Notes: a model not told the origin generated them from the letters alone. Shown: positions 2,058 to 16,327, counted from the stretch's first letter. The stretch: DNA of 16,327 nt from a virus (IMGVR_UViG_2609459850_000004:1-16327), one strand, 5' to 3'. Translations and numbers: made by a program.

Positions 2058-2132
2058 GTCCTCTTAGTTAAATGGATATAACGAGCCCCTCCTAAGGGCT
2101 AATTGCAGGTTCGATTCCTGCAGGGGACACCA
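2058..2132 (+). tRNA. argW: tRNA-Arg (anticodon CCU)
   Basis: 75-nt cloverleaf: acceptor stem GTCCTCT/AGGGGAC, anticodon stem AGCCC/GGGCT with loop CTCCTAA (anticodon CCT), T-arm GGTTCGATTCC, discriminator A and encoded CCA at 2130-2132. Confidence 0.93.
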
Positions 2133-2293
2133 TTTATCAGTTCGCTCCCATCCGTACCAGTCCGCAAAATCCCCTGAATATCAAGCCTTCCGTAGATTCA
2201 CAGTTCGTCATGGTCCGCTTCAGATCGTTGACAGCCGCACTCCATGACGGGTAAAAAGTGGATAAAATAATTTTACCCACCGGATTTTTACCC

Positions 2294-3451
2294 ATGCTCA
2301 CCGTTAAGCAGATTGAAGCAGCAAAGCCGAAAGAAAAACCATACCGCCTACTCGATGGTAATGGCCTGTACCTTTATGTCCCTGTGTCAGGGAAAAAGGT
2401 ATGGCAGCTTCGCTACAAGATTGACGGTAAGGAGAAAATCCTGACCGTCGGAAAATATCCGCTAATGACTTTGCAGGAGGCAAGAGATAAAGCATGGACC
2501 GCGAGGAAAGACATCTCGGTTGGCATCGATCCGGTAAAAGCGAAAAAGGCTTCGTCTAACAACAATTCCTTTAGTGCCATTTACAAGGAATGGTACGAGC
2601 ACAAGAAGCAAGTCTGGTCAGTAGGCTATGCAACTGAACTTGCCAAAATGTTTGATGACGACATTTTACCCATCATCGGCGGTCTTGAGATTCAGGATAT
2701 TGAGCCGATGCAACTGCTGGAAGTAATCCGCAGATTTGAAGATCGCGGTGCAATGGAGCGAGCCAACAAAGCCCGCAGAAGATGCGGCGAGGTTTTCCGT
2801 TACGCTATTGTCACCGGCAGGGCTAAATATAACCCGGCACCTGACCTTGCTGACGCCATGAAGGGGTACCGCAAGAAGAACTTCCCGTTTCTTCCTGCAG
2901 ACCAGATCCCGGCATTCAATAAAGCACTGGCAACATTTTCAGGAAGTATCGTATCGCTCATTGCCACCAAGGTTTTACGCTACACTGCCCTAAGAACGAA
3001 AGAGCTTCGTTCCATGCTATGGAAGAACGTCGATTTTGAAAACAGGATTATCACCATCGACGCCAGTGTGATGAAGGGCCGCAAGATTCATGTTGTTCCT
3101 ATGTCAGACCAGGTGGTTGAGCTTCTCACTACGCTAAGCTCCATCACTAAACCAGTCTCAGAGTTTGTTTTTGCCGGGCGCAACGATAAGAAGAAGCCAA
3201 TCTGCGAGAACGCGGTATTGCTTGTGATCAAACAAATCGGCTATGAAGGTCTGGAAAGCGGTCACGGATTCAGGCATGAATTCAGCACGATTATGAACGA
3301 GCACGAATGGCCTGCCGACGCCATTGAAGTGCAACTGGCACATGCCAACGGCGGATCTGTGCGTGGAATTTACAATCATGCTCAGTATCTCGATAAGCGC
3401 AGAGAAATGATGCAGTGGTGGGCGGACTGGCTTGATGAAAAGGTAGAGTGA
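2294..3451 (+). CDS. intS: P4-family tyrosine integrase (IntS-like prophage integrase)
   Basis: ORF directly downstream of the tRNA and reading away from it. N-terminal arm-binding-type region (KPYRLLDGNGLYLYVPVSGKKVWQLRYKIDGKEK), C-terminal catalytic region with conserved R (LRTKELRS), HGFRHEF and a tyrosine (RGIYNHAQY). The ORF track starts at GTG 2258; I prefer ATG 2294 (385 aa) from my recollection of IntS. Confidence 0.9.
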   Translation: MLTVKQIEAAKPKEKPYRLLDGNGLYLYVPVSGKKVWQLRYKIDGKEKILTVGKYPLMTLQEARDKAWTARKDISVGIDPVKAKKASSNNNSFSAIYKEWYEHKKQVWSVGYATELAKMFDDDILPIIGGLEIQDIEPMQLLEVIRRFEDRGAMERANKARRRCGEVFRYAIVTGRAKYNPAPDLADAMKGYRKKNFPFLPADQIPAFNKALATFSGSIVSLIATKVLRYTALRTKELRSMLWKNVDFENRIITIDASVMKGRKIHVVPMSDQVVELLTTLSSITKPVSEFVFAGRNDKKKPICENAVLLVIKQIGYEGLESGHGFRHEFSTIMNEHEWPADAIEVQLAHANGGSVRGIYNHAQYLDKRREMMQWWADWLDEKVE

Positions 3452-3691
3452 GCGACCTTAAACTATCGAATAGCACAAAGCCTTGCAATCCAGTGCAAAG
3501 CTTTGTGCGTATCAGTTTTGTCTGAGTGTTCTACTGAAAACATAGTAAAATCGGTAACAGTTGGAAATCATTCAATACTCGCACTATCAGAAGTTCACCA
3601 GCCAGTCGTAGCCCGTACCTCCGTACGACGTGCTACGGTTTCATTTATCCGGTGCGCCGTAAAACCCCGTCCTTCAGGGCGTGGAGGATGT

Positions 3692-3775
3692 CAACTGGAC
3701 GCACTGGAGCTGGTCGATACTTCCGGTGCGCCAGATATTGAATGGCCTACGCCTCCGGCTGTTCAGGCCAGATGA
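3692..3775 (+). pseudogene. Relic of a second tail-fibre-assembly (Tfa) gene, C-terminal end only
   Basis: Plus-strand translation ends ...QLDALELVDTSGAPDIEWPTPPAVQAR*, the Tfa C-terminal signature (compare the minus-strand Tfa ending VDTSTAPDVIWPEQPEA). The upstream 60 codons of ORF 3503-3775 look like junk. It is convergent with, and overlaps, the 3' end of the intact tfa. Confidence 0.45.
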
Positions 3776-4163
3776 CATCAGGGGCCGTTGACGTATCAAC
3801 GGCTTTCACCGCTTTTTTATGCGCCATCCACTCAGACAATTTCGCTTTATCCTCGTCACTTATATCGCCGAGCATTAATTCACCCCGCCAGTCGGCGGTT
3901 ACTTCGTCAATCTGCTGTAGCCGTTGCTGGCGATATTGTTCTGCCGCCGCTATTTGCTCTTCATGCGTTGGAGGTGGCGCATCGACCCAAGCTGGCAGTC
4001 CAGTGCTATCTGCACCAAGCATTTTACCTTCAGGCCAGGCAATACCAGCAAATTGGCTGTAGAGGTTAACACTGATTTCAATAGCTGATTCAGGAATAAA
4101 CCTGCTTTCAGGTTCAATATAAAATCCGTTATCAACGGCGTCATAAAAGTATCTTTTTTCCAT
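3747..4163 (-). CDS. Phage tail-fibre assembly protein (Tfa, lambda Tfa / P2 gpG / Mu U family)
   Basis: 138 aa; C-terminus KAVKAVDTSTAPDVIWPEQPEA matches the conserved Tfa tail. It follows the fibre gene, with the stop of the fibre gene adjacent to its start. Confidence 0.85.
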   Translation of the reverse strand: MEKRYFYDAVDNGFYIEPESRFIPESAIEISVNLYSQFAGIAWPEGKMLGADSTGLPAWVDAPPPTHEEQIAAAEQYRQQRLQQIDEVTADWRGELMLGDISDEDKAKLSEWMAHKKAVKAVDTSTAPDVIWPEQPEA

Positions 4164-4164
4164 G

Positions 4165-4878
4165 TTAATAACCTATTGCCAATAAACAACCGGCAGCTTG
4201 AGCAGCCGTCCATGAAGTCCCATTAACTGTTCCTAAAGCACGAACTTTGACTGTCGTTCTGGTAGAGCCATTAATATCGAAGCCCCACGTTGTGCCGGAC
4301 GATCCATTCCACGAGCTAGCAGAAGCACCTGAGTCAATCGCAGTGGCATGAAGCAGAGCGTTAGGAAATGCTATAGGTAATGTAACGGTTGCTAATCCAG
4401 TCGAATCGGCAACAAATCCAGAGACCCACTGGAAAATGATATTTTGTTCAACCCCATCAATTAAAGCCGGGATCAATATTCTCCCGGTATTACCAGTTAC
4501 CCCTACAGCAGCGCCAAGTTTTGCCGCTTCTCCCAAACCAAGATTTTCGAGAGCCGTTTCCACCGTGCCGTCCGATTTGATATCGCCAAACGGATTCTTG
4601 CGGCTCAGGTATTCAACAGCAAACCCCGATCCCAGCAATTCAACAAAACCGGGCAGATCACCATTATCAAGCACATCCCGTTGCGTTTTGTCACTTACAA
4701 ACTGGGCCAGAGCTGCAGCAATAAAGCTGGCCTGCCGAATAACCTTATTGACTTGCGCACTGGATGCTTTACCTGCTGTAAATCCGGATAAAAGCGCGGG
4801 CAACGCTTCCCATTCCTCCTGCGATATAACATTGGCACTTCGATCCGTTGCAAACGCTTTAAAGTCATTTTTCGCCAT
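4165..4878 (-). CDS. Phage tail-fibre protein (short; gpH / Mu S position)
   Basis: Position between the gpI-like gene and tfa. Start ATG at 4878 overlaps the stop of the upstream gene (TGATG); the track's alternative start is 4896. Gly/Ser/Thr-rich C-terminal half typical of fibre distal domains. Assignment is by synteny plus composition. Confidence 0.65.
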   Translation of the reverse strand: MAKNDFKAFATDRSANVISQEEWEALPALLSGFTAGKASSAQVNKVIRQASFIAAALAQFVSDKTQRDVLDNGDLPGFVELLGSGFAVEYLSRKNPFGDIKSDGTVETALENLGLGEAAKLGAAVGVTGNTGRILIPALIDGVEQNIIFQWVSGFVADSTGLATVTLPIAFPNALLHATAIDSGASASSWNGSSGTTWGFDINGSTRTTVKVRALGTVNGTSWTAAQAAGCLLAIGY

Positions 4879-5558
4879 CAGAGTAATACTCCCCATGCTC
4901 CTACATCAAAACCACTGATGAATTCGTTATCTATATCAAAACCAAAAAATTTTGAGCCTTCCGATGGGGTTTCCACCGAAGGTGTTTCAATGCCTCCCGC
5001 CCATACCCCGGCGGCTTTTACTGTGAGATACCCCTGTTTAATTGCCGCAATTAACTCACGCGATACATCTGAAATATCAGTATCAGGAAAGACCCAGACC
5101 GATATCGTCATGTCCTGGTTATCGACTATCTGCATTCGCAGTCCGGATCCTGCTGTCGCCGCGTCAAGAATTACCGGAAGCGAATCATTCCGTCCGTCCC
5201 AGTTATTAATCGCAATCTTCGCTTTAAGAATGACACGATAAGTTTCATCGCTGAGATACATGTATCCAGAATCAGGATCATATGGCCCCTGCCATACCCC
5301 CTGATCATATCCAATCCCGTCGGCATCCCAGCTGAAATAGACACCTGAGATAGGCTGGCTGACAACACGGCTGCGTCCGATCCACAATCCAAGAATGTCA
5401 AGTTGCACACCAACCGCAGAGTCAATATCAAATGCAGTAATCAGCCCTCTGGTGGCAGCCGCAACATCAATAAGCGGCCGGGTCATCAGATCAACATGTG
5501 CAAGAAATTTAGGTTTGGTGGCGTGATAGTTTGTGATTAGTTCGGTGTATTTGCTCAT
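4878..5558 (-). CDS. Baseplate protein, P2 gpI / Mu gp48-like (DUF2313/YmfQ-like)
   Basis: 226 aa; ATGA start/stop overlap with the J-like gene; synteny J-I-fibre. Family recognised from memory. Confidence 0.65.
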   Translation of the reverse strand: MSKYTELITNYHATKPKFLAHVDLMTRPLIDVAAATRGLITAFDIDSAVGVQLDILGLWIGRSRVVSQPISGVYFSWDADGIGYDQGVWQGPYDPDSGYMYLSDETYRVILKAKIAINNWDGRNDSLPVILDAATAGSGLRMQIVDNQDMTISVWVFPDTDISDVSRELIAAIKQGYLTVKAAGVWAGGIETPSVETPSEGSKFFGFDIDNEFISGFDVGAWGVLL

Positions 5559-6754
5559 GACTCCACCGTTATAACGATATTTTCCGGGGTACAGGACGCA
5601 GATTCGTTATATCTGATATCAATGTTTGATGACGACAAAGCCCCAGGGGATTTCCCAATCGTCAGTTCCTGAATATCGTAATAGCGTGCATTCCCGCCAC
5701 TCACCACGCCAAGATTCGCCGGTGAGTAAATGCGACTTAAAAGGACCGAATCACCAATCATCAGACTATTGATATAGTCGGAAATAGCCGGCTGGATCTG
5801 CTGCCCTATCTGTGAGGTATAACCCGTAAAAACTTTTAATTTAATCCGGGCATAAACAGGCACATCACTGGAACGCGAGAATTTGATTACATGGGGATTG
5901 CCGTATTTATCCGGAACCGTAACGGATGTTGTACCGTGAGTGGCTGTACCCTGGCCTTTATTCCCTCTAATAGCCTGAGCAATATCCGTCACATCACCGC
6001 CATCCACAATTACAGCAACAGAGTGTGGCGGTAACCCGTTACCGTCCTCCGAACCAGTATCGTTTTCATAGAGTTTGTGGCGGGTTACACCGGTAACATT
6101 AGAAACAGCACCATCCAGTGCTTCAAATGGGGTTATTGATGGCAACGCAACACTTTGCGACTGGCGGATACGTAACTCCGCATCAGTTTCTGCTGGAGTG
6201 CCTACAGTAGCTGCAGCAGGATTGGTTACCGAAACCCAGCCACGGGTCGGTGTGTTAATGGTGGTAATAGTCCCGGCCATCGCCGCAACCGAACCGCTAT
6301 TCGCACATGTGGCCGTCACCAGCACAGTACCATCAACCCCGATTGCTACACTCGCGGGAAAATTCCAGATAATGCCGTTTTTATCCCGTGCGGAGCCATT
6401 CGTGATAGTCGTGCCAGCCGTACCGGTTAACAGAAGGTCAGCAGTAGAGTTTGTTGCTACTTTTCGCGTGATCCCGTTAATTTTCACATTGCTGCTAAGC
6501 GCTGCGGCCTGCGCTGTCGTCGGTGAAAACGAGTTGTAGATCTCGATAGCGGTATTGTTAGCATCATGCACAGCCAGAGCCACCAGCGCGACCATTTGCC
6601 CATCTTTGCTGTCTGGTTCGAGGTAGGCATCACTACCGTAAATCTGCCTGAAATAGCTGGTCAGTGTATCGAGGATTGTCTGGTAATCAGGCGCACTAAT
6701 CCCCTGGGCGGTTACCGTTGCCGATAGCCCCAGCGTGTCGAGGTTCAAAGCCAT
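5555..6754 (-). CDS. Baseplate J-like protein (P2 gpJ / Mu gp47 family)
   Basis: 399 aa; size and position between the W-like and I-like genes, with translational coupling on both sides. Confidence 0.75.
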   Translation of the reverse strand: MALNLDTLGLSATVTAQGISAPDYQTILDTLTSYFRQIYGSDAYLEPDSKDGQMVALVALAVHDANNTAIEIYNSFSPTTAQAAALSSNVKINGITRKVATNSTADLLLTGTAGTTITNGSARDKNGIIWNFPASVAIGVDGTVLVTATCANSGSVAAMAGTITTINTPTRGWVSVTNPAAATVGTPAETDAELRIRQSQSVALPSITPFEALDGAVSNVTGVTRHKLYENDTGSEDGNGLPPHSVAVIVDGGDVTDIAQAIRGNKGQGTATHGTTSVTVPDKYGNPHVIKFSRSSDVPVYARIKLKVFTGYTSQIGQQIQPAISDYINSLMIGDSVLLSRIYSPANLGVVSGGNARYYDIQELTIGKSPGALSSSNIDIRYNESASCTPENIVITVES

Positions 6755-7108
6755 TTATGCCTCGCTTGTTACAGTCGTCTGGCCGTAGATTGTGTCAATG
6801 GAGGAAGTGAAAGTGACGCGTCGGCTGTTGCCGTCATAATTGGTATCGAAGGAAAGAATCGACAGAACGCCCGGCGTGTCCTGTATGCGTTCGCGTATAG
6901 CCAGGATGTAGACGTCTGATCGCTGTTTCCCAAGCACTGACTGAACATACGGCGTACCTTCCGTCAGATCGAGAAACCACTGACCGCGCCACAGCTCGAA
7001 ACGGGTTTTTACGGCCTGGGCGACACACTCCGGACTGTCTATAAGGAAGGTGTCGTCACCCTGCCCGAAAGTGTAATCACCGTCAGCATCTTCTCGTCGG
7101 TATCGCAT
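6755..7108 (-). CDS. Small baseplate protein, gpW / gp25 / Mu gp46-like
   Basis: 117 aa; sits between the V-like and J-like genes and its start overlaps the V stop (TAATG). Assignment mainly by size and synteny. Confidence 0.5.
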   Translation of the reverse strand: MRYRREDADGDYTFGQGDDTFLIDSPECVAQAVKTRFELWRGQWFLDLTEGTPYVQSVLGKQRSDVYILAIRERIQDTPGVLSILSFDTNYDGNSRRVTFTSSIDTIYGQTTVTSEA

Positions 7109-7848
7109 TATTGCGGCCCTCCAGTAGTCCCCCCGCCTGTCTGAACTCCGCCATGTTTATGCGTGGCGACACTTATACCTGAAGCTGTCACATCATTCGT
7201 TACCGTAACCGGCCCAAGCATCGTCGCAGTACCACCACTTTCTCCCATTCCCTGAGACAGGTTACCGTTAATCGTTACGTTGCCGTTCAGCGTGATGGTC
7301 GGGGATGTGATTGTCGTTCCACCTTCAGCCGTAGCCGTAAGCTGGCCCGGCGTTTTAATGGTGATGTTATGTCCTGCAGCGACCTCTACGAACGCCGCAC
7401 CATCATCGGTTCGCAGCTGCGCGGCGCTGGTGCTGATACCACTGATTTTCTGTGCTTGCGACTGCGGGCCAACGATGGCGAACGCATCAGATAAGTCATG
7501 CTGGCGCGGGTCGACGGTCTCCTGAACGCCGCCGCTCTGCCACCAAAAATCAATGCAACGGTCGGCAAAGATCAGCAGGCACTCGTCGCCTTCTTTTACC
7601 GGAAAGGTCAGCGTGCAACCGCCGCCGCGCGGGAAGATAACCGGCACATCCACCAGCGGTTTTAATTCGGTGGAGCCATCGCCAACAATACCGCGAAGCG
7701 CCACTTCTACTGTGCAGGTTACAGCGTCAGGATCGAACGACTGAATGATGCCAGGCATCGCCACGCGCATTTGGGTAGACACTGAATCGGCAATGGCCTG
7801 CGCGGTCTGCTGCTCACCGCCGATCTGTGATTGAGTTGGAATTGGCAT
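7108..7848 (-). CDS. Baseplate spike/hub protein (P2 gpV / Mu gp45 family)
   Basis: 246 aa; C-terminus ...ATHKHGGVQTGGGTTGGPQ matches the gpV apex motif (P2 gpV ends HTHKHPGDSGGTTGSPL) and N-terminal ...MPGIIQSFDPDAVTCTVEV resembles the gpV OB-fold start. An internal Met (MRVAMPGII) could be the true start. Confidence 0.8.
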   Translation of the reverse strand: MPIPTQSQIGGEQQTAQAIADSVSTQMRVAMPGIIQSFDPDAVTCTVEVALRGIVGDGSTELKPLVDVPVIFPRGGGCTLTFPVKEGDECLLIFADRCIDFWWQSGGVQETVDPRQHDLSDAFAIVGPQSQAQKISGISTSAAQLRTDDGAAFVEVAAGHNITIKTPGQLTATAEGGTTITSPTITLNGNVTINGNLSQGMGESGGTATMLGPVTVTNDVTASGISVATHKHGGVQTGGGTTGGPQ

Positions 7849-7858
7849 AAAAACCCCA

Positions 7859-7882
7859 TAAAAAAACCAGCCGAAGCTGGTT
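7859..7882 (-). terminator. Rho-independent terminator-like hairpin (minus-strand sense)
   Basis: Stem AACCAGC (7865-7871), loop CGAA, stem GCTGGTT (7876-7882), preceded on the plus strand by A7, which is a T-run after the hairpin on the minus strand. Lies about 10 nt upstream of the gpV-like start. Confidence 0.4.
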
Positions 7883-8059
7883 TGGTATCAATTACTAAGC
7901 TACATCAGTGTGAAGTAAGGCTTTTCCGCTGCAATGGCACACATTCACAAGGTGTATTAGGATATGTTTGCAACAAGTAAGCATTAAAAATCAATTTCAG
8001 CCATGAAGCCGCCATAGAGTGGACCTGCACCATCGCATTCTTGACTACAGGAGTAACAA

Positions 8060-8350
8060 ATGGGATTTAGATTTCGCAAAAGAATCCGGATTGCGCCCGG
8101 ACTCGCGATCAACATTAGCAAAAGCGGAGTAAGCACTTCGATTGGTGGTAAAGGTTCCACCATTAACATCGGGAAAAAAGGCGTAAAGATGACAAATGGC
8201 CTTCCCGGCACTGGGCTGTCGCATACCACTAACCTTTACTCTCCCGGAAAATCGACAGAAAAAAAACAACTTACTCATAAGCAAAAAATAATTAGAAACA
8301 TCCTGTTCGTAATTATTGTGTTTATTATAATTAAAGCTCAATATTTTTGA
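8060..8350 (+). CDS. Small DUF4236-like protein with C-terminal transmembrane helix
   Basis: 96 aa; RBS AGGAG at 8049-8053 with 6-nt spacer. N-terminus MGFRFRKRIRIAPGLAINISKSGVSTSIGGKG...PGTGLSHT matches the DUF4236 pattern as I remember it; C-terminal ILFVIIVFIIIKA is hydrophobic. AT-rich. Confidence 0.6.
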   Translation: MGFRFRKRIRIAPGLAINISKSGVSTSIGGKGSTINIGKKGVKMTNGLPGTGLSHTTNLYSPGKSTEKKQLTHKQKIIRNILFVIIVFIIIKAQYF

Positions 8351-8355
8351 CGCAT

Positions 8356-8386
8356 GCCCGCCTATCTGGCGGGCTATTTTACTTTT
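8356..8386 (+). terminator. Rho-independent terminator between convergent genes
   Basis: Perfect 7-bp stem GCCCGCC (8356-8362) / GGCGGGC (8368-8374), loop TATCT, then T-rich TATTTTACTTTT. The lipoprotein stop codon lies inside the stem. Confidence 0.6.
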
Positions 8387-9264
8387 CGGCAGTCGTATGT
8401 TGCATACTGTCGCGGCGCATCCATGCTGGCTTGTACCCACTGAGCGTTTAGGATGGCTTTTCCTTTACGTTTAATGTATTCAATACCAACCCAACGACCG
8501 GGCAGACTGGTAGCAACCATCCACTCCATTTTTATATTATCCGGTTCGTTGTTAGTGCTGCCACCAGCACCGATGGGAGTAATTTTTTGCGTCTCTGGTT
8601 TCGCGCCATTAATTCTGGCCCAGCCATCAGCAGAGGAAAGATCTATCCTATACGGTCCACAAACTATTATGTAATTGATGCCAAGTTTTTCGTTGCTGCG
8701 AGCTTTCCTGCTTTTCTCATAATCTTCCTTCGCAACATCATTCATCTTTTGATAGATAGCAGGTTGTTTTAAAGAAAACTCATTCAGCTTCTTAATAAAG
8801 TTTTCTCGCGGAACCTCTGCAAGCCCCATAGATTTTCTATCAAGGATATAGTCATCATATATCTTTGACACAACAGAAAGTGATGACAGTTTTTTAGCTA
8901 AATCATTTGCAAAGTTTAGATAATTAAGTGGTGAGTTGTCTCTTATATCAATAGCTCTAACTCCACCTGTACCGTATTCATGATAAGCAGCATAAAAAAC
9001 AGGTATACTTTCAGGTTTTTTGTTAATCGCTTTAATTAGTCCTTCTGGACCGCAAGACTCTCCACTCCAGTCAATAAGCGACTTCCCTTTCGATTTCCAT
9101 GTTTGGCAATCATCAGCTGATAAAATTAAAATTGGCTGCCACCCCGGGCGTTTTTTGTAACTAACATTCTTATCAGAATTGAAGCCTGCATTTGCGCATC
9201 CAGAAACGAGCAGCACCGACAGGAAAATCACACTGTATCGAAGTCCATTCATGTTCTTATACAC
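8374..9264 (-). CDS. Lipoprotein of unknown function
   Basis: 296 aa; signal peptide with lipobox LLVSGC; strong RBS AGGAGGAGG upstream of the GTG start at 9264 (alternative ATG at 9252). AT-rich compared with neighbours. Confidence 0.65.
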   Translation of the reverse strand: MYKNMNGLRYSVIFLSVLLVSGCANAGFNSDKNVSYKKRPGWQPILILSADDCQTWKSKGKSLIDWSGESCGPEGLIKAINKKPESIPVFYAAYHEYGTGGVRAIDIRDNSPLNYLNFANDLAKKLSSLSVVSKIYDDYILDRKSMGLAEVPRENFIKKLNEFSLKQPAIYQKMNDVAKEDYEKSRKARSNEKLGINYIIVCGPYRIDLSSADGWARINGAKPETQKITPIGAGGSTNNEPDNIKMEWMVATSLPGRWVGIEYIKRKGKAILNAQWVQASMDAPRQYATYDCRKVK

Positions 9265-9308
9265 TCAACCTCCTCCTGAACGAGCTATAGTCGCCTGGCT
9301 AATCAGAT

Positions 9309-9322
9309 GGCACTGTTGCAAA
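9309..9322. repeat. IS26 terminal inverted repeat (14 bp)
   Basis: GGCACTGTTGCAAA, the perfect reverse complement of 10115-10128. Confidence 0.95.
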
Positions 9323-9360
9323 GTTAGCGATGAGGCAGCCTTTTGTCTTATTCAAAGGCC

Positions 9361-10065
9361 TTACATTTCAAAAACTCTGCTTACCAGGCGCATTTCGCCC
9401 AGGGGATCACCATAATAAAATGCTGAGGCCTGGCCTTTGCGTAGTGCACGCATCACCTCAATACCTTTGATGGTGGCGTAAGCCGTCTTCATGGATTTAA
9501 ATCCCAGCGTGGCGTTGATTATCCGTTTCAGTTTGCCATGATCGCATTCAATCACGTTGTTCCGGTACTTAATCTGTCGGTGTTCAACGTCAGACGGGCA
9601 CCGGCCTTCGCGTTTGAGCAGAGCAAGCGCGCGACCATAGGCGGGCGCTTTATCCGTGTTGATGAATCGCGGGATCTGCCACTTCTTCACGTTGTTGAGG
9701 ATTTTACCCAGAAACCGGTATGCAGCTTTGCTGTTACGACGGGAGGAGAGATAAAAATCGACAGTGCGGCCCCGGCTGTCGACGGCCCGGTACAGATACG
9801 CCCAGCGGCCATTGACCTTCACGTAGGTTTCATCCATGTGCCACGGGCAAAGATCGGAAGGGTTACGCCAGTACCAGCGCAGCCGTTTTTCCATTTCAGG
9901 CGCATAACGCTGAACCCAGCTGTCAATCGTGGAGTGATCGACATTCACTCCGCGTTCAGCCAGCATCTCCTGCAGCTCACGGTAACTGATGCCGTATTTG
10001 CAGTACCAGCGTACGGCCCACAGAATGATGTCACGCTGAAAATGCCGGCCTTTGAATGGGTTCAT
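9361..10065 (-). CDS. tnp26: IS26 transposase Tnp26 (DDE, IS6 family)
   Basis: Translation MNPFKGRHFQRDIILWAVRWYCKYGISYRELQEMLAERGVNVDHSTI...GDPLGEMRLVSRVFEM recognised as Tnp26. ATG at 10065 lies 64 bp inside the element end; the track ORF begins at an upstream TTG (10083). Confidence 0.95.
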   Translation of the reverse strand: MNPFKGRHFQRDIILWAVRWYCKYGISYRELQEMLAERGVNVDHSTIDSWVQRYAPEMEKRLRWYWRNPSDLCPWHMDETYVKVNGRWAYLYRAVDSRGRTVDFYLSSRRNSKAAYRFLGKILNNVKKWQIPRFINTDKAPAYGRALALLKREGRCPSDVEHRQIKYRNNVIECDHGKLKRIINATLGFKSMKTAYATIKGIEVMRALRKGQASAFYYGDPLGEMRLVSRVFEM

Positions 10066-10114
10066 GTGCAGCTCCATCAGCAAAAGGGGATGATAAGTTT
10101 ATCACCACCGACTA

Positions 10115-10128
10115 TTTGCAACAGTGCC
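10115..10128. repeat. IS26 terminal inverted repeat (14 bp)
   Basis: TTTGCAACAGTGCC, the perfect reverse complement of 9309-9322. Confidence 0.95.
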
Positions 10129-10154
10129 CGTGCAGTTAAGCAGAGGGCTGAATA

Positions 10155-11306
10155 ATGGTGAACGAGAGACGAGATTATGAGGTTAATTTCCTGTACTACC
10201 CGGAAGTGTTCGCTGCGGCTCTGTCGCGTGTTGAACCAGACACGTCAGTCCTGGGCTGGCTGGGCCAGGCTCGCGCTCTGGCGTGCTGGTGTGAGCTGCT
10301 GAGGCTCGACCCACTGGAGACCTGTGTGGAGTGGTCTGCGCGTGGTGTGAACGCGGGTAAGGCCGACAGGGCAATGTTAGCGTCGGCGCTGCGTGACCTG
10401 GATGACCTCGACCGGCTGGCGGCGGCTGGGGCGTTCCTGCGCTCCTCCGGGGTGGCTGCTGACGTTGCTGCCGGGCGCATCGCTGTTCGTGAGCCCACCG
10501 AGGACGAGCTGGCTGCTCGTCAGGCGCATCTGGTTGCACTACGGGAACGTGCGGCTGCTGCTGCGGCGAAGCTGACGGAGGCTCGCATTAAGGCAACCGG
10601 TAGGGCGCGGATGCTGCTGCATCGCGCCAAAAAGCCGGGGAATGCGGCGCTGTACTGGAAGGCCAAGGAGCGAGCTGCGGAGCGTTTGCTGCCGTGCCCT
10701 GACGACGTGAAGTGCTCGGACTGGAGCACGTTCCTGCCGGTGCTGGGTCGCGTGTGGTGGAATGAGTCGCTTCTGGTGCCGCTGTACGGGGTGAACGAGT
10801 CACTACGGTTGGAGTGTATGTCAGTGGAGGTGATTTGCGGTCGCGCCAACCCTGAGGCGGCAGGTTCGCTGGGCGAGAAGCGTGGCCTCGAGAATGCACC
10901 GCGTGAGGGGCTGTTTTACCCGTTCGACCTGTCCAGCGTCCGTTCTGGTAACCCTCTGGTCATCTGCGAGGGGTTCATGTCGGGGCTGGCGCTCTCTCTG
11001 CTGATGGGCGGCAAGCTGCCGGTGATCTGCGCGATGTCGGTGGGTAACTTCGGGGCGACAGTGCAGACGCTGAATAAGTTTGTTATGGGTGACTCCCCGT
11101 TCGTACTGGTACCGGACATTGGCGGGCAGGATCTGGCTATCGATCAGGCTATCCCGAATGCCCGGGTGATCGACCTGTCGGCGGTACCGGGAGCCGAGGG
11201 CGTGGACGGCTACGACCCGTTCGATCTGCTGGCGCGTCATGGTGTCGAGATGGGACGTAAGTATCTGCGGAGCTTGTTTCGTGAGGCGCGTGACGCGAGC
11301 CTGTAG
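10155..11306 (+). CDS. Toprim-like domain protein (primase-related?), high GC
   Basis: 383 aa; RBS GAGGG 7 nt upstream of the ATG. C-terminal half carries NPLVICEGFMSGLALSLL...PVICAMSVGNFGATVQ...FVLVPDIGGQDLAIDQ, resembling Toprim motifs (DnaG-like EGxxD...DxD region). The Ala/Arg-rich N-terminal half is unrecognised. In-frame stop at 10149-10151 shows the ORF is not truncated by IS26. Confidence 0.55.
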   Translation: MVNERRDYEVNFLYYPEVFAAALSRVEPDTSVLGWLGQARALACWCELLRLDPLETCVEWSARGVNAGKADRAMLASALRDLDDLDRLAAAGAFLRSSGVAADVAAGRIAVREPTEDELAARQAHLVALRERAAAAAAKLTEARIKATGRARMLLHRAKKPGNAALYWKAKERAAERLLPCPDDVKCSDWSTFLPVLGRVWWNESLLVPLYGVNESLRLECMSVEVICGRANPEAAGSLGEKRGLENAPREGLFYPFDLSSVRSGNPLVICEGFMSGLALSLLMGGKLPVICAMSVGNFGATVQTLNKFVMGDSPFVLVPDIGGQDLAIDQAIPNARVIDLSAVPGAEGVDGYDPFDLLARHGVEMGRKYLRSLFREARDASL

Positions 11307-11337
11307 TGGTACCAGGTTTCTCTCTCTCGTTGTTCTC

Positions 11338-11363
11338 AGCCCGCTTCGGCGGGCTTTTATTTG
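11338..11363 (+). terminator. Rho-independent terminator
   Basis: Stem AGCCCGC / GCGGGCT with TTCG tetraloop, followed by TTTTATTTG; 32 nt after the stop at 11306. Confidence 0.6.
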
Positions 11364-11374
11364 AGGATCTCCCC

Positions 11375-11680
11375 ATGACCGACCAGACCACCACCATCGC
11401 CGACCTGGCGCTCTCACAATCCGCGTTTCTCGTCTCTCAGGCTGTCGTTGAGCTGGACGCCATGTTCGGCGAGGGCTATGCCGCTGCTCACCCGGCTGTG
11501 CTGGCTCAATTCCTGCAGACGGCGGGGGTCATCTTCGCCACACAGCTGCAGGCTTCTGCCGCGTTCGACCTTGCCTCGCAGCTCGACCGCCTGATTGGCT
11601 TGGGGCTGGCTTGCTGCAAGCCAATCAGGGTGCCTCGCACTAAAACGCCGGGGCCGGCTGCGATCAGTCCTTTGCTATGA
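11375..11680 (+). CDS. Hypothetical small protein (101 aa)
   Basis: ATG at 11375 preceded by GAGGA at 7-nt spacing, immediately after the terminator. Ala/Leu-rich with no recognisable motif. The track ORF begins upstream at 11306 without an RBS. Confidence 0.45.
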   Translation: MTDQTTTIADLALSQSAFLVSQAVVELDAMFGEGYAAAHPAVLAQFLQTAGVIFATQLQASAAFDLASQLDRLIGLGLACCKPIRVPRTKTPGPAAISPLL

Positions 11681-11828
11681 GGCGACGCCCCAGGGGTTCG
11701 CCCCTGATCAGCTGGAGTCCGTAGACCGGACGTCTGATGCCCGGTGGCGGGCGTTCTACCTCGCCAGCTATGGCTACTGCCTCGAGTACGCGGGGTTTTG
11801 ACCTGGGCGGCGGCTGCCGCGCTACCGG

Positions 11829-12356
11829 TTACTTCAGGTCAGGCATCCGGCGGGTGATCACCGTGTTGATGCGGTCGTTGTTCCATGGGCGACCGTTCGA
11901 CTGCAGGAGCCCTGCCTCGTTCAGCGCCTGGGCGATAGCTTTGTTGTCGTAGCGGAATCCCCGATCGCGCTGCTCCTCCCTCATGCGCCGTATGGTGGCC
12001 ATCACCTCGGCCTCGTCGTAATGCCCCGAAAATTCAGCGCCAGCGGGGCGCTGTGCTGCGTTTTGTGTTTCAGATGAGTTACTAGTCAGCTTTTCAGCCC
12101 GTGGCCTTGTAGCGCGTCCTGTTGGCTTCTGTAGCACATTGTGTTTCAGCGTATTCGAGATGTCCTGCAGCAGCTCCACCATCAGGTCGAGGCGGTTGCC
12201 GCTCTCCCCCTGCGGCTCTGGTATGCCAAGGTATGCACGGAGTGCGTCGGTAATCACGTCGGTGCGGGTACGGTTCGTTTTCTCGGCCAGCTCGTTCGTC
12301 TGCTCGAGCAGGTCGGCGGGGAGACGTAGGCTGAATGTCGGGCTTTTGCGCTGCAT
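11829..12356 (-). CDS. Ribbon-helix-helix DNA-binding protein with recombinase-like C-terminal domain
   Basis: 175 aa from ATG 12356, with AGGAG-containing RBS. N-terminus MQRKSPTFSLRLPADLLEQTNELAEKTNRTRTDVITDALRAYL is a typical RHH (CopG/Arc-like) segment. C-terminus EVMATIRRMREEQRDRGFRYDNKAIAQALNEAGLLQSNGRPWNNDRINTVI resembles the recombinase-family DNA-binding domain pattern (IA..LN..G....G..W....V..I). No serine-recombinase catalytic domain is present. Confidence 0.55.
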   Translation of the reverse strand: MQRKSPTFSLRLPADLLEQTNELAEKTNRTRTDVITDALRAYLGIPEPQGESGNRLDLMVELLQDISNTLKHNVLQKPTGRATRPRAEKLTSNSSETQNAAQRPAGAEFSGHYDEAEVMATIRRMREEQRDRGFRYDNKAIAQALNEAGLLQSNGRPWNNDRINTVITRRMPDLK

Positions 12357-12860
12357 CCGTGTTGCTCCTGTGTGGTCTGGTGCCACCGATTGAAACACGT
12401 TTGTAACTTCTCGTCTATTTCGACGTGTTGCGCTTGTGCTGCATAACCGGTACGGGTCGAGCCCTTCGGCTCGACTCTCTGGTGCCAGTGGACAAGCCCT
12501 GTGGACAATTTGCCGTGTCAGTGAATAAATGCGTGGCGCGATCACGACAGCTCGATAAGCGGTCGCCGTTCAGTGGCGTGAAGGGTTAGGATCGGTTAAG
12601 CTGATCGTCGTTCGTGGATTATGTTGGGTGATCTGCGGGCACAAAAAAAGCACCTGGCCGGGTGCTTTGATTGCCGGGGTTAAACCCCGTAGTTTCGAGT
12701 CAGTGTCTTGACGGACGTACTCGAAGGAAATCATACATCACGTTGGGTGATTCTCAAATCCTCGCTGAGAATTGTATCACGTCGATAAGATCGTGCAAGT
12801 CGATTTCCTCCGTAATCCCCCGCCTGACGCCGACTCCTACGTTTTTAAAGGAGTTGTAAC

Positions 12861-14420
12861 GTGCCAAAAACTAAACAAGAAATAGCCACTGTAACGCCGA
12901 TCACCGCTGCACCGTCACCGCTGTCGCTAAAATTGGGCGATGCGCTGTTTTCTGTCTTGTCGGTGTCTGCGGACTGGTCTGGTGACTACCGCGCTCAATT
13001 CGAGCTGTATGGCCTGAATGTAAAAGCTATCAACTCTGCCGTCGGCACTGCCGTCTGGCACGCTGGCAAGGGGCGGTTCCTCTCTGTCCTAAATGGCTCC
13101 CTGACCGAGTTCGATAAGGGCGACGGAATGAAGCTGCTGGAGGACTCCTGCGGCAAGTTCTGGCACCGCACCGATGCGTTTATCGCCCGCCTGACTGACC
13201 TCAAAATCAAGACCGACGACAAGGTAACCAAGGCGTGTATCGATATGGCTCGGGCTGTTCGTCAGGCGGGGGCTGAGTTCATCATGCTGCGCCGTCAGGT
13301 GGCAGTCGTTCGCCTCGACGTGGACATGTTCGCCACGGCTCCTCGCGTCGAACTGGTGGGTGAAACTGTGACGTTCGTCCGTCCTCATGCTCCCTATCCG
13401 GTGGCTAATGCCGACAGTGACGTGGTGGCTGATTGGCTGGTTCATTTCCCTCAATGCCATGAGTTCCTCGACGCGCTGGTTGCAGCCCGCTTTGCCTCAA
13501 GCCGTAAGAATGCCTACCTGTTTTTCCGTGCGCAGTCCGATTGGGGTAAGGGGCTGCTGTTTGGTGCTGGCGGCGTTCTGTCACGCCTGGGAGCGACGGT
13601 GGAGCTGTCCGAGGGGGAGCTGCTCAACATCCTGAGCGGTGCCAACTCCGGTGTAACGGCTAGTCACTTCATGGGGGCGCTGGCGCTGATCGTCAACGAA
13701 TGCACCAGGGTGACGAAAAAGCACTTTCGTCTTGAGGAGTCGCTGGCTCTGACGCCGAAGTACCTCACGACGCAGTGCGTGAACCTGTACATGAAAATTT
13801 TCACCAGTGCCGACCCGATCCCCGGACTGTCCGACTCCGACGGAATTGACCCGCAGGTGGCGAACCGCTTTTCTATGCTCGATCTGCAGGGCGACATCAA
13901 GACGCGCCCGCTGTTCCTGTCCGACAAGGGACGCTATGTCGACAGCCTGACGTCGTTCTTTGCCGCCGAGCTGAATGCCAGGGTGGCGTCCTATCAGGCT
14001 AAGGGCTTTGAGACCGCTCGCCGCGATGCCGACCATGTTCTGGCTGCTTTCACCACTGCGCATGGGTTGGCGAATGCTGCCGGGCTGATCACCGACGCGT
14101 ATGACGAAATTCGGGCTGAGTGGGTGGCGTTCGTCCATGGGCGTGTTGCTGATGGGCACCCGGACTTCCTCACCTTCGAATCAAAGGCTGGTTTGGTTCT
14201 CCGCTCTCCTGTCGGATGCTGGGGTAAGTTCCTCGACTGGTACGTGGACAAAAGCGAACCGCTGCGCCGTGCTCGCCTGATGCATGACCGCGATCTGATC
14301 ATCGGCTGCGCGAAAAAATACCGCGATGTTGGTGGCGCTGCTGAAGGCAAGGGGGTGCTCATCCCGTTCGTGTCCGGCTCGATGCCCGACAACGTCCACC
14401 GGTTCCGGTACAAAAATTGA
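12861..14420 (+). CDS. Hypothetical 519-aa protein, candidate replication-associated (unrecognised family)
   Basis: Long high-GC ORF with GTG start preceded by AAGGAG at 7-nt spacing, followed by a strong terminator and an iteron array. No family recognised; the replication role is inferred from context only. Confidence 0.65.
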   Translation: MPKTKQEIATVTPITAAPSPLSLKLGDALFSVLSVSADWSGDYRAQFELYGLNVKAINSAVGTAVWHAGKGRFLSVLNGSLTEFDKGDGMKLLEDSCGKFWHRTDAFIARLTDLKIKTDDKVTKACIDMARAVRQAGAEFIMLRRQVAVVRLDVDMFATAPRVELVGETVTFVRPHAPYPVANADSDVVADWLVHFPQCHEFLDALVAARFASSRKNAYLFFRAQSDWGKGLLFGAGGVLSRLGATVELSEGELLNILSGANSGVTASHFMGALALIVNECTRVTKKHFRLEESLALTPKYLTTQCVNLYMKIFTSADPIPGLSDSDGIDPQVANRFSMLDLQGDIKTRPLFLSDKGRYVDSLTSFFAAELNARVASYQAKGFETARRDADHVLAAFTTAHGLANAAGLITDAYDEIRAEWVAFVHGRVADGHPDFLTFESKAGLVLRSPVGCWGKFLDWYVDKSEPLRRARLMHDRDLIIGCAKKYRDVGGAAEGKGVLIPFVSGSMPDNVHRFRYKN

Positions 14421-14426
14421 ACAATA

Positions 14427-14448
14427 ACCCGCTTCGGCGGGTTTTTTT
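14427..14448 (+). terminator. Rho-independent terminator
   Basis: Stem ACCCGC / GCGGGT with TTCG loop followed by T7 (14442-14448); 7 nt after the TGA at 14418-14420. Confidence 0.7.
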
Positions 14449-14454
14449 ATGGCT

Positions 14455-14535
14455 TGGAACCTCGCTGGAACCTCGCTGGAACCTCACTGGAACCTTCTTA
14501 AACCCGCGCCATTGCTGGTTGGAACCTTTGGAACC
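14455..14535 (+). repeat. Direct iteron-like array of heptamer TGGAACC
   Basis: TGGAACC at 14455, 14466, 14477 and 14488 (exact 11-bp period, unit CTGGAACCTCG), plus two more copies at 14520 and 14529. Confidence 0.8.
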
Positions 14536-14606
14536 TGATTTTCTAACCTTCTCTCTCCAATAACGAAAGCTCTCTCAATTTCCCTGATTACTCTTTTTAA
14601 AAAATA

Positions 14607-14696
14607 GGTTCCAAGGTTCCATCGTTGATTTTAAAAGATTTTTTAAGGTTCCAATGCGGTTCCAAGGCGGTTCCACAAGGTTCCAAGGCGGTTCCA
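14607..14696 (-). repeat. Inverted-orientation array of the same heptamer (GGTTCCA)
   Basis: GGTTCCA at 14607, 14615, 14647, 14658, 14669, 14679 and 14690 (10-11-bp period in the last five, unit GCGGTTCCAAG). Separated from the direct array by an AT-rich spacer (14536-14606). Confidence 0.8.
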
Positions 14697-15565
14697 GCTC
14701 AATTCCTGCGCAGTTGACGCGCCGCAGCTGCACCCCGTTGGGGATGCACTTTGCGTGTCGTGTTTGGATCTGGTGTCGCTCTCCCCGGTGCGTGGTTTGC
14801 ACCTGCCGGATCTCCAGCTAAAAAAGCCCGGAGGGAAATGGGGGCAGTTTCCAGTGCTGGCGGGGGTTGGCGGGTGGTTTATGCACGGTGGATCGTGGTT
14901 GGCACCGTGCATTGGTGTTTGGCGGCAATCGCCGCGCCTACCGGTTTGCCAAATCCTGCCCCAACTTTCAGGGGGTACAGGGGCTTAAATGGGGTGCTGT
15001 CGTGTCGTTGGGTTGGTTCGGGGTTGAGGCGCTTAGAATGGCTCTGGTGCGTTCTGGTGGGGGCGTGCTTTCTAACCGGTAGGGGCGCAGCTGTCGCCGC
15101 GCTCCTGGTTGGGGTTAGCGCCAGCGTTCGAGCCGGTACCTGACAGTGATCCCGTTCTTCGACATGGTGTGGACGTAGTCCGGGTTTTTCAGCGTGAGGT
15201 CGATCGCCTTGGTGCGGTGCGTCTTGTATTTGTACCGGGCTTCCTCGGGGAAGTTCTCGCCTGTGACCATCTCATCCCATGACTCTGTTCACAGCGTATG
15301 CCATGCCGAGCGTACTGCGGAAGACAACGCCACGCTGTTGAAGCAAGTCAGCTTCTTAGACAAGCGTGTGACTGTATTGTCGGAGCAGCTGAAGCAGTTC
15401 GGGAACCTCTACAAGCAGAACAGGAGTTAAGACGGCAGAAGAACGAGAACGCTCAAGAGCTGACAAAGTCGGCACCAAAAATCGCCCCTGTGGCATTCAA
15501 GAAGAGATCAGGCCCTGATTATGGGCCTAGCATGTAATGCCAGGATGAATTGCTCTCTGTGCCTT

Positions 15566-15973
15566 TTACAATTCATCTTTTTGTAAAAAACTAAGAAATA
15601 CAGGCAAAATTTCTTCTTGCATGAAAGCTGCTTCCATTTGAGTTGTCGGTAAGGAAGCCGCTCTTTGAGCGAGTTTCAAACAAACTATTTTTAACGCACC
15701 CAAACAATCTTCTCCTTGAATAACAAGGCTATTTTCAGAAGAATAATTTTTCATGAAAGTTAGGGTTGAATGCAATGCCACTGCTTCTGGCATAAGCCGT
15801 TTCCCTTTGTGTTTTGCAAAAACATCGGGCATGGCACGGTACTGATTTATTATTATGACGTGCGCTAAATCAGGCACTTGTAGTTTAAAAAGATTAGGTA
15901 AAAGGCGAAGCTCAGTATCAACAATGGTTTCCACTTTAGAAATATAAAAAATTTCAGCAATGCCACTGAACAT
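15566..15973 (-). CDS. Hypothetical protein (135 aa), low GC
   Basis: ATG at 15973 with GGAGG RBS at 5-nt spacing; 27 nt downstream of the preceding gene on the same strand (operon-like). No motif recognised. Confidence 0.55.
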   Translation of the reverse strand: MFSGIAEIFYISKVETIVDTELRLLPNLFKLQVPDLAHVIIINQYRAMPDVFAKHKGKRLMPEAVALHSTLTFMKNYSSENSLVIQGEDCLGALKIVCLKLAQRAASLPTTQMEAAFMQEEILPVFLSFLQKDEL

Positions 15974-16000
15974 ATCGCCCTCCGGTTACAGTCAAAACTA

Positions 16001-16327
16001 TCAGTATTTACCACCTTGAATAACGCTTAAACCGTTTGATAGAGCCTTTTTATGATTACTTACCGTGCCTTTCCAGCCAAACTGCGGATTCAAGCGGTAG
16101 GTTTTGCTACGCCCGATTTTAGGACCCTCTAAAATAATTCCAAACTCAATGAGGTTTTTCACGGCACGGCTGACATGGGGTTTTTGCATGTTTAAAGCAT
16201 CAGCAATGTCTATCTGCGCTACCTGAATATAATTTTCATAATCAAGTTCAGCTAAAAGAGCCATTAAAACGCGCATTTGATCATGATTTAGTTCATTGGC
16301 GATAGTGATTAGTGCTGCTTGATTCAT
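16001..16327 (-). CDS. Putative winged-helix DNA-binding protein (regulator or replication-associated)
   Basis: 108 aa; start codon is the last three bases of the window. Central segment QIDIADALNMQKPHVSRAVKNLIEFGIILEG has an HTH-like pattern. Family not identified. Confidence 0.5.
   Translation of the reverse strand: MNQAALITIANELNHDQMRVLMALLAELDYENYIQVAQIDIADALNMQKPHVSRAVKNLIEFGIILEGPKIGRSKTYRLNPQFGWKGTVSNHKKALSNGLSVIQGGKY

Follow-up and report, generated by a model that had tools for sequence, protein, structure and literature searches.

A prophage and a plasmid fragment joined at IS26: a probable two-element composite at the argW integration site

The recombination module of the KplE1 (CPS-53) prophage, whose published attachment core is CTGCAGGGGACACCAT, is common to HK620, CUS-3 and other phages (PMC2951348). 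The insertion sequence IS26 is described, in the accounts drawn on here, as moving solely through cointegrates, for which there are two routes, copy-in and targeted conservative (PMC8477213; PMC4196232). Both kinds of element meet in the stretch of viral DNA analysed in this work (IMGVR_UViG_2609459850_000004:1-16327; 16,327 nucleotides, hereafter the window), which begins in the argW neighbourhood of an Escherichia coli chromosome. A sequence-only reading had described the window as a mosaic island anchored at argW and made of at least four compositional blocks, acquired one after the other. The elements it listed (argW, an integrase, a phage tail block, an AT-rich gene pair, IS26, a high-GC module and a low-GC operon) are all present about where it placed them. 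The count of acquisitions, on the contrary, was too high, since the blocks reduce to a prophage carrying a moron and one piece of plasmid. We consider that the locus is probably a composite of two mobile elements, namely prophage DNA at 2134-9308 and plasmid-derived DNA at 10129-16327 with a copy of IS26 between them, and not a many-layered island. The fusion of IncR-plasmid DNA into the argW prophage by IS26 copy-in is the best explanation that we can offer, and a reasonably probable one.

The left part of the window shares with the KplE1 (CPS-53)/HK620/Sf6/CUS-3 module the argW target, the core, and an integrase gene immediately beside the left attachment site (attL), oriented away from the tRNA. 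The only tRNA gene found by ARAGORN in the window is argW, a tRNA-Arg(CCT) gene at 2058-2132 on the + strand, between yfdC and intS (Rfam tRNA, 63 bits), which is the integration target; a scan of the window with Rfam gave nothing besides this tRNA. The attL core is the 16-nt sequence CTGCAGGGGACACCAT at 2118-2133 (+), which overlaps the 3' end of argW and is identical to the core published for KplE1. The adjacent intS gene (2294-3451, +; open reading frame from 2258) encodes a tyrosine integrase of 385 aa, which Pfam, nucleotide identity and the annotation of relatives assign to the KplE1/HK620/CUS-3 recombination module. IntS has the arm-binding (DUF4102/Arm-DNA-bind_3, PF13356; 2e-25), core-binding (Phage_int_M, PF22022; 6e-28) and catalytic (Phage_integrase, PF00589; 5e-39) domains expected of a P4-family tyrosine integrase. 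Compared to the int regions of HK620, CUS-3, HK633 and other phages, intS and the sequence upstream of it show a nucleotide identity of 95-97%. With respect to KplE1, HK620 and Sf6, the cargo is different: it consists here of a contractile-tail baseplate module related to vB_EcoM-611R5 and to Citrobacter phage Omnitron, instead of gtrABS or P22-like content. In fact, the gtrABS genes found at this spot in the KplE1 prophage of K-12 are absent between intS and the baseplate wedge gene. Moreover, neither torI nor the right attachment site (attR) lies in the window.

In the relative E89 (L001) the 16-mer occurs twice (14118 and 28065), at the argW 3' end and again just past the recombination directionality factor gene torI, before dsdC. 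The unoccupied site (attB) was reconstructed from the yfdC-argW end of the window and the E89 DNA that follows attR. Among 5,426 complete E. coli genomes, 911 have an empty yfdC-argW-dsdC site that matches the reconstruction contiguously (100% identity in the examples listed), and 2,506 contain DNA similar to intS. Therefore, the DNA after argW is accessory, and not a conserved part of the core genome, and the site is a heavily used hot spot, as had been proposed from the tRNA-integrase arrangement. A tRNA gene, an adjacent integrase and accessory DNA missing from some strains are thus found together, as in a tRNA-anchored island. As regards the flanking direct repeats, attL is present, and no second repeat of the argW 3' end of at least 12 nt occurs anywhere in the window. 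It follows that attR is absent from it, in agreement with the earlier inspection by eye, and that the right end of the island lies outside.

The segment at 2134-9308 is the left arm of a KplE1/HK620-type lambdoid myovirus prophage. Lambdoid myovirus-tailed prophages of E. coli, such as FJ_Ec_21 at bioA-ybhC and L005, L009 and L011 at argW, contain the same baseplate genes and the same AT-rich gene pair with 99-100% identity. In the intact prophages the genes are arranged in the order head, sheath and tube, tape measure (with a soluble lytic transglycosylase, SLT, domain), Dit-like protein, baseplate plug, a 355-aa protein similar to gp41 of E217, the 296-aa gene of the AT-rich pair, the DUF4236 gene (on the opposite strand) and gpV, and continue to the tail fibre genes; intS, argW, yfdC and mlaA come next in several of them (L005, L009, L011, L013). 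The same tail module is found in FJ_Ec_21 in a lambdoid phage with CI, Cro, CII, Q and nin genes, integrated at the lambda attachment site (bioA-ybhC), and some prophages of this group use other integrases and attachment sites. These prophages are uninterrupted, from the 355-aa gene to tape measure, tube, sheath, head and control region, whereas here IS26 cuts at 9308. The homology of every relative to the window ends at exactly this nucleotide, which corresponds to position 9957 of their locus, within the 355-aa gene (8933-10000 there). Only the last 44 nt of this baseplate gene are left in the window (9265-9308, -), as shown by alignment to the intact relatives.

The AT-rich pair (8060-9264), which had been counted as a separate block, belongs to the same phage. 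It sits between the 355-aa baseplate gene and gpV of intact prophages (L005-L014), and the exact 296-aa product of its second gene (8374-9264) occurs on many long E. coli contigs that carry an uninterrupted contractile-tail prophage. Since the pair lies inside the tail operon of intact prophages, it is a phage moron and not a separate chromosomal acquisition. The full-length 296-aa gene and the pair are rare, being present in 4 of the 5,426 complete E. coli genomes.

On the other side of IS26, homology to plasmids begins at exactly 10129 and continues unbroken, with 99.8-99.9% identity, to two autonomous small plasmids (L015 and L017). The window thus contains, from 10129 to its end at 16327, a fragment of a cryptic plasmid of 12.7 kb; in the source contig this fragment reaches 16961, and IS903B comes next. 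The repeat unit of L015 measures 12,710 bp and has an overall GC content of 0.57, which ranges from 0.40 to 0.67 in 500-bp windows. Considering the contiguity with this unevenly composed plasmid, the high-GC module and the low-GC "operon" lie next to each other in a single backbone. The best E. coli matches of 10129-16327, and every listed match that reaches beyond IS26, are plasmids. The closest is the IncR plasmid p5-S1-CAM-01-A (NZ_CP145712.1), which is virtually identical to 9309-16327 and to the 825 nt that follow in the source contig, both insertion sequence junctions included. In detail, 9309-15050 differs from it by 4 substitutions and 1 indel (99.9% identity), and the sequence from 15001 to the end of the source contig, including 191 nt of IS903B, is 100% identical; the junctions between IS26 and plasmid and between plasmid and IS903B are the same base for base. 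This result indicates that the complete block, made of IS26, a 6.8-kb fragment and IS903B, pre-exists on an IncR plasmid. What lies to the right of 9308 did not arrive by the tRNA/integrase route, but is IncR-plasmid DNA joined by IS26. A related plasmid of strain ES3 carries a longer version of the block, with IS26 at both ends. The IncR replicon lies elsewhere on p5-S1-CAM-01-A, outside the window and the source contig, and the other flank of the IS26 is different in the two cases: a sugar-modification cluster on the plasmid, the argW prophage here. No prophage DNA, which would be the reciprocal product, was found on p5-S1-CAM-01-A.

The composition of the window was compared to a reference of 79 windows of 500 bp from the core flank (mean GC 0.478, standard deviation 0.058, maximum 0.568). 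The abrupt changes that had been described are present, both in the GC profile and in the GC content at third codon positions (GC3) of single genes, but in terms of bulk GC only the high-GC block goes beyond the core range. This block, from 10129 to about 15250, has a GC content of 0.59 (500-bp windows 0.58-0.65, z about 2-3), and the genes within 10155-14420 have a GC3 of 0.69-0.73. The AT-rich pair has a GC content of 0.40-0.41, which is not exceptional (z about -1.5), and a clearly low GC3 of 0.36-0.40. The low-GC segment (15251-16327), with the last two genes of the window, has a GC content of 0.42 and a GC3 of 0.28-0.36. As regards the other genes, GC3 is about 0.55 in the core genes and intS, 0.39-0.43 in the tail fibre and wedge genes, and 0.49-0.58 in the baseplate J, gp25-like and gpV genes. 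These steps are real, and argW with its integrase is indeed a hot spot, so that four or more successive integrase-type acquisitions, one for each block, might be imagined. We regard such a history as highly improbable: intact phages have the integrase, tail block and AT-rich pair in one continuous stretch, autonomous plasmids likewise have the high-GC and low-GC blocks in one stretch, the window contains neither internal attachment site copies nor extra integrases, and IS26 is its sole internal boundary.

The IS26 copy (820 bp, 9309-10128, -) is complete, as judged from its sequence, with 14-bp perfect terminal inverted repeats (TIRs; GGCACTGTTGCAAA), and contains a single gene, tnp26 (9361-10065, -), for the 234-aa DDE transposase Tnp26 (Pfam DDE_Tnp_IS240, PF13610). 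Its 8-bp flanks, AATCAGAT and CGTGCAGT, are different from each other and do not represent a target site duplication; therefore, this is not a simple insertion of IS26 with duplication of the target. The missing duplication is what is expected at one end of a cointegrate, or after a rearrangement. On this basis, the locus was probably formed as follows. A contractile-tail lambdoid temperate phage, whose lineage carried the two-gene moron inside its tail operon, would have integrated site-specifically into the argW 3' end, by means of IntS and the 16-nt core. The plasmid's own IS26 would then have attacked the prophage, through a copy-in (replicative) cointegrate or through insertion of a translocatable unit, joining it, 44 nt before the end of the baseplate gene, to the block made of IS26, the 6.8-kb fragment and IS903B. 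Copy-in would give the order target DNA, IS26, DNA of the donor flank, with the 8-bp duplication visible at the far end alone. The observed junction is exactly that predicted, and for this reason copy-in is taken as the most likely history; the sequence identities and the exact breakpoints are observed, and the route of transposition and the state of the remaining prophage are inferred from them. The fusion would have inactivated the tail module of the prophage.

The locus resembles known IS26 cointegrates, translocatable units and pseudo-compound transposons in having a complete IS26 at a sharp junction between unrelated DNAs that lacks a flanking duplication, and the corresponding segment of the ES3 plasmid is bounded by IS26. 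It departs from them in that no resistance gene is carried, in the variant transposase described below, and in that a second IS26 and the 8-bp duplication are not observed, because the contig ends first. JNMD01000073.1 (GCA_000700065.1; 21,480 bp; L024) contains the window with 100% identity and goes 825 nt past it: plasmid homology continues to 16961, IS903B starts at 16962, and the contig ends 191 nt into it. As had been stated, the island therefore ends on the right beyond the window, and attR, a second IS26, the duplication of AATCAGAT and the remaining prophage are all outside view.

With the far end out of view, two other explanations have to be weighed against copy-in. According to the first, the junction is real but secondary: IncR or IS26 DNA would have entered earlier, either at another place of the chromosome or into the prophage with an ordinary duplication, and a later intramolecular IS26 event (adjacent deletion or inversion), or recombination between copies of IS26 or of IS903B, would have produced the order prophage, IS26, plasmid and removed the remaining prophage. 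The lack of a target duplication around IS26 would fit this course of events, and so would a plasmid fragment that is itself bounded by a second insertion sequence, IS903B; furthermore, related IncR plasmids (those of ES3 and p5-S1-CAM-01-A) already differ in this block by deletions associated with insertion sequences. Such a history needs more steps, and nothing in the window separates it from a primary cointegrate; we consider it unlikely.

The second explanation is that the contig is an assembly chimera, in which an IS26 copy in the argW prophage and the IS26 of a separate IncR plasmid similar to p5-S1-CAM-01-A, located there beside the gene of the 383-aa protein, were joined through their common 820 bp. 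Several observations favour it and weigh against a true fusion. The window comes from a 21.5-kb contig of a draft assembly, and in such assemblies chimeric joins are classically found where a repeat of 820 bp has been crossed. Of the presumed insertion, a single junction is visible. From 9309 to the contig end there is essentially no difference from a free IncR plasmid, none of the complete E. coli genomes covers at least 80% of the window, and the best matches of the plasmid part are all plasmids. The prophage/IS26 junction was seen nowhere else, being absent in exact-pattern scans of the genome_contigs and metagenome_contigs collections, a negative result that is uninformative since neither includes the source assembly. 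Finally, the IS26 copy has two odd substitutions of its own, which might be errors of consensus or assembly. On the other side, the assembly ran through IS26 and broke inside IS903B, which suggests that the crossing had read support, or that this IS26 copy is resolvable or single-copy in that genome; this is a point in favour of a true junction. Moreover, even in a chimera the IS26 in the prophage would still be real, and would have come by a cointegrate. Taken together, we judge a chimera to be rather improbable, and retain copy-in fusion as the preferred reading.

The two substitutions with respect to canonical IS26, at 9921 and 9924, are 3 nt apart and change Tnp26 at two adjacent residues (Y48D and R49S) in helix 3 of the DNA-binding helix-turn-helix (HTH). 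The double variant was found at none of 22,092 IS26 places in the complete E. coli genomes. Substitution of the same arginine by alanine (R49A) abolishes TIR binding and cointegration (PMC8477213). If the substitutions are real, by analogy Tnp26 Y48D/R49S is probably inactive, and an inactive transposase would freeze the junction.

We also considered that a plasmid had captured chromosomal DNA. This possibility was rejected, because from mlaA-yfdC-argW-intS onward the left 9.3 kb of the window are in synteny with chromosomes of E. coli. Upstream of argW the window contains mlaA (1-756, -) and yfdC (1050-1982), and the order mlaA-yfdC-argW-intS is that of the argW neighbourhood of E. coli chromosomes. 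The best matches of the window taken as a whole are chromosomal records.

The other genes of the tail block are all on the - strand. They encode a tail fibre assembly protein (3747-4163; Pfam Caudo_TAP, E 2e-32), a tail fibre with a gp53-like C-terminus (4165-4896; Pfam Gp53-like_C), a baseplate wedge protein (DUF2612/Phage_Wedge1; 4878-5558; PF11041, E 1e-46), a baseplate J/gp47-like protein (5555-6754; Pfam Baseplate_J), a gp25-like baseplate wedge protein or sheath initiator (6755-7108; phrog_120 baseplate wedge subunit, E 2e-36; PF10934 on the identical gene of relatives) and the baseplate spike gpV (7108-7848; Pfam gpV N-terminal domain and Apex motif). Between intS and the wedge gene, the region at 3452-4526 (in the alignments, about 3530 to 4525) could not be aligned to most relatives that are otherwise 98-99% identical. 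It contains about 300 nt of non-coding DNA besides the assembly gene and the C-terminal part of the tail fibre. From the sequence, this region resembles a host-range cassette that has been swapped, to which the tail fibre gene would belong. In one argW prophage relative (L013, 14289-16141) the tail fibre C-terminus and the assembly genes are present in two inverted copies beside intS, which resemble an invertible host-range segment; no invertase gene was called there.

The first gene of the moron (8060-8350, +; GC 0.395) encodes a DUF4236 protein, identified by PF14020 on the identical gene of relatives and by several PHROGs of unknown function. The second (8374-9264, -) encodes a predicted lipoprotein of 296 aa. 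Its true start is likely the ATG at 9252, since in the translation a lipobox, LVSGC, then follows. phrog_3443 matches the protein at its C-terminus only (residues 200-296), and no match was obtained with Pfam, NCBIfam or PADLOC. In relatives, the only portion of the moron annotated by the Prokaryotic Genome Annotation Pipeline (PGAP) is the C-terminal third, as a pseudogene. When PADLOC was run on the AT-rich pair and the plasmid genes, no defence matches other than weak HTH noise were obtained. A role of the moron in superinfection exclusion is a guess.

The fragment at 10129-16327 likely holds the replication module of the 12.7-kb plasmid, which, as read from the sequence, would consist of a Toprim-like protein, a D5-like superfamily 3 (SF3) helicase and an origin with TGGAACC iterons. 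The first gene (10155-11306, +) encodes a 383-aa protein that matches phrog_2249 DNA primase (E 2e-8) and gave neither a Pfam match nor a Protein Data Bank (PDB) sequence match; the motifs ICEG and VPDIGGQD in its translation suggest that it is probably a Toprim-type primase-like replication protein. It is followed by a gene at 11829-12356 (-) for a 175-aa ribbon-helix-helix (RHH) regulator of the CopG/Arc type (Pfam RHH_1; Arc/CopG repressors among PHROGs), which is also called in the source contig. The gene at 12861-14420 (+) encodes a protein of 519 aa, which phrog_35045 and Foldseek point to as a D5-like SF3 helicase, the predicted replicative helicase of the plasmid. The match to phrog_35045, a phage "DNA primase" family, concerns the C-terminal part (E 2e-46), and this was the only family to match, Pfam and NCBIfam giving nothing at E <= 0.001-0.01. 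Longer homologues (733-838 aa) bear PriCT_2. A sequence search of the PDB was empty as well, and a fold search was therefore needed. The AlphaFold model (predicted local distance difference test score, pLDDT, 81.6) gave as best Foldseek hits MPXV E5, vaccinia D5, the C-terminal region of NrS-1 and ASFV PrimPol, with E values from 3e-8 to about 1e-8 and a probability of 1.00, but with template modelling (TM) scores of just 0.33-0.39. In the modelled SF3 fold, the invariant GK (229-230) and NE (279-280) columns would correspond to Walker A and B.

An array of iterons that resembles an origin comes directly after the 519-aa gene and a hairpin, at 14455-14696. It was detected with Tandem Repeats Finder (TRF) and a repeat finder, and is composed of six TGGAACC repeats in + orientation, spaced at 11 bp, an AT-rich spacer and seven inverted GGTTCCA repeats. 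The window contains 14 matches of the TGGAACC type as compared to 2.2 expected, 13 of which fall within the 242-nt array, and none of 200 shuffled sequences reached 14. In its D5-like fold, as modelled, its C-terminal homology and the iterons beside the gene, the module is similar to replicons with a primase and a D5-like SF3 helicase (NrS-1, poxvirus D5/E5, PriCT_2 primase-helicases). It differs from them in that primase and helicase are split over two genes that are not matched by Pfam or NCBIfam. It might be speculated that the chromosome holds a complete and potentially active replication module (Toprim-like protein, RHH regulator, SF3 helicase and inverted iterons) of a 12.7-kb cryptic plasmid family that is widespread in Enterobacteriaceae but untyped, locked in place by an IS26 disabled by Y48D/R49S, and thus a second origin, of plasmid type, in a dead prophage. 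We regard this as doubtful.

The low-GC part of the plasmid backbone contains the last two genes of the window, both on the - strand. The first (15566-15973) encodes a hypothetical protein of 135 aa that gave no match in scans of Pfam, NCBIfam and PHROG, and is found beside the second on plasmids of 12-14 kb. The second (16001-16327) encodes a 108-aa protein, listed as a winged-helix regulator on the basis of weak HTH, MarR/Crp-like and phage O N-terminal matches. MOB-suite assigned no replicon type to a sibling plasmid of the 12.7-kb family. In sibling plasmids the 519-aa helicase is replaced by a 489-aa D5_N/DUF5906 protein, and some of them have a 919-aa SLT-domain transglycosylase beside five genes that form a conserved operon of unknown function (L020 8744-10213, L017 11391-14150 and L025 3671-6430 for these proteins). 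In L015 (ERZ1304100 NODE_1688, a metagenome contig) and in L002/L016 (NZ_CP195972.1, 24,246 bp, a complete record), a unit of about 12.1-12.7 kb is repeated head to tail, as a dimer or concatemer; these are either real multimers or products of assembly. On p5-S1-CAM-01-A (L026, 6022-14984), the sugar-modification cluster at the other flank of the same IS26 comprises eight genes, among which are GtrA-like, GT2, nucleotidyltransferase, HAD and aldolase genes, with a second IS26 as its boundary.

This locus is made up entirely of parts of known kinds, at a textbook site. Some independent value is found only in the small-plasmid replicon, with its predicted split primase/SF3 helicase and iteron origin, which is uncharacterised and not recognised by curated protein and replicon libraries; apart from this untyped replicon, only the odd IS26 copy is possibly worth a further look. 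More generally, the locus is a caution against reading compositional steps after a tRNA gene and an integrase as a series of island acquisitions. Morons in phages and plasmids of uneven internal composition give the same compositional picture, and IS26 is able to link a prophage to plasmid DNA. The junction, if real, would represent one more case of IS26 carrying IncR-plasmid DNA into the chromosome, in this instance without a resistance gene.

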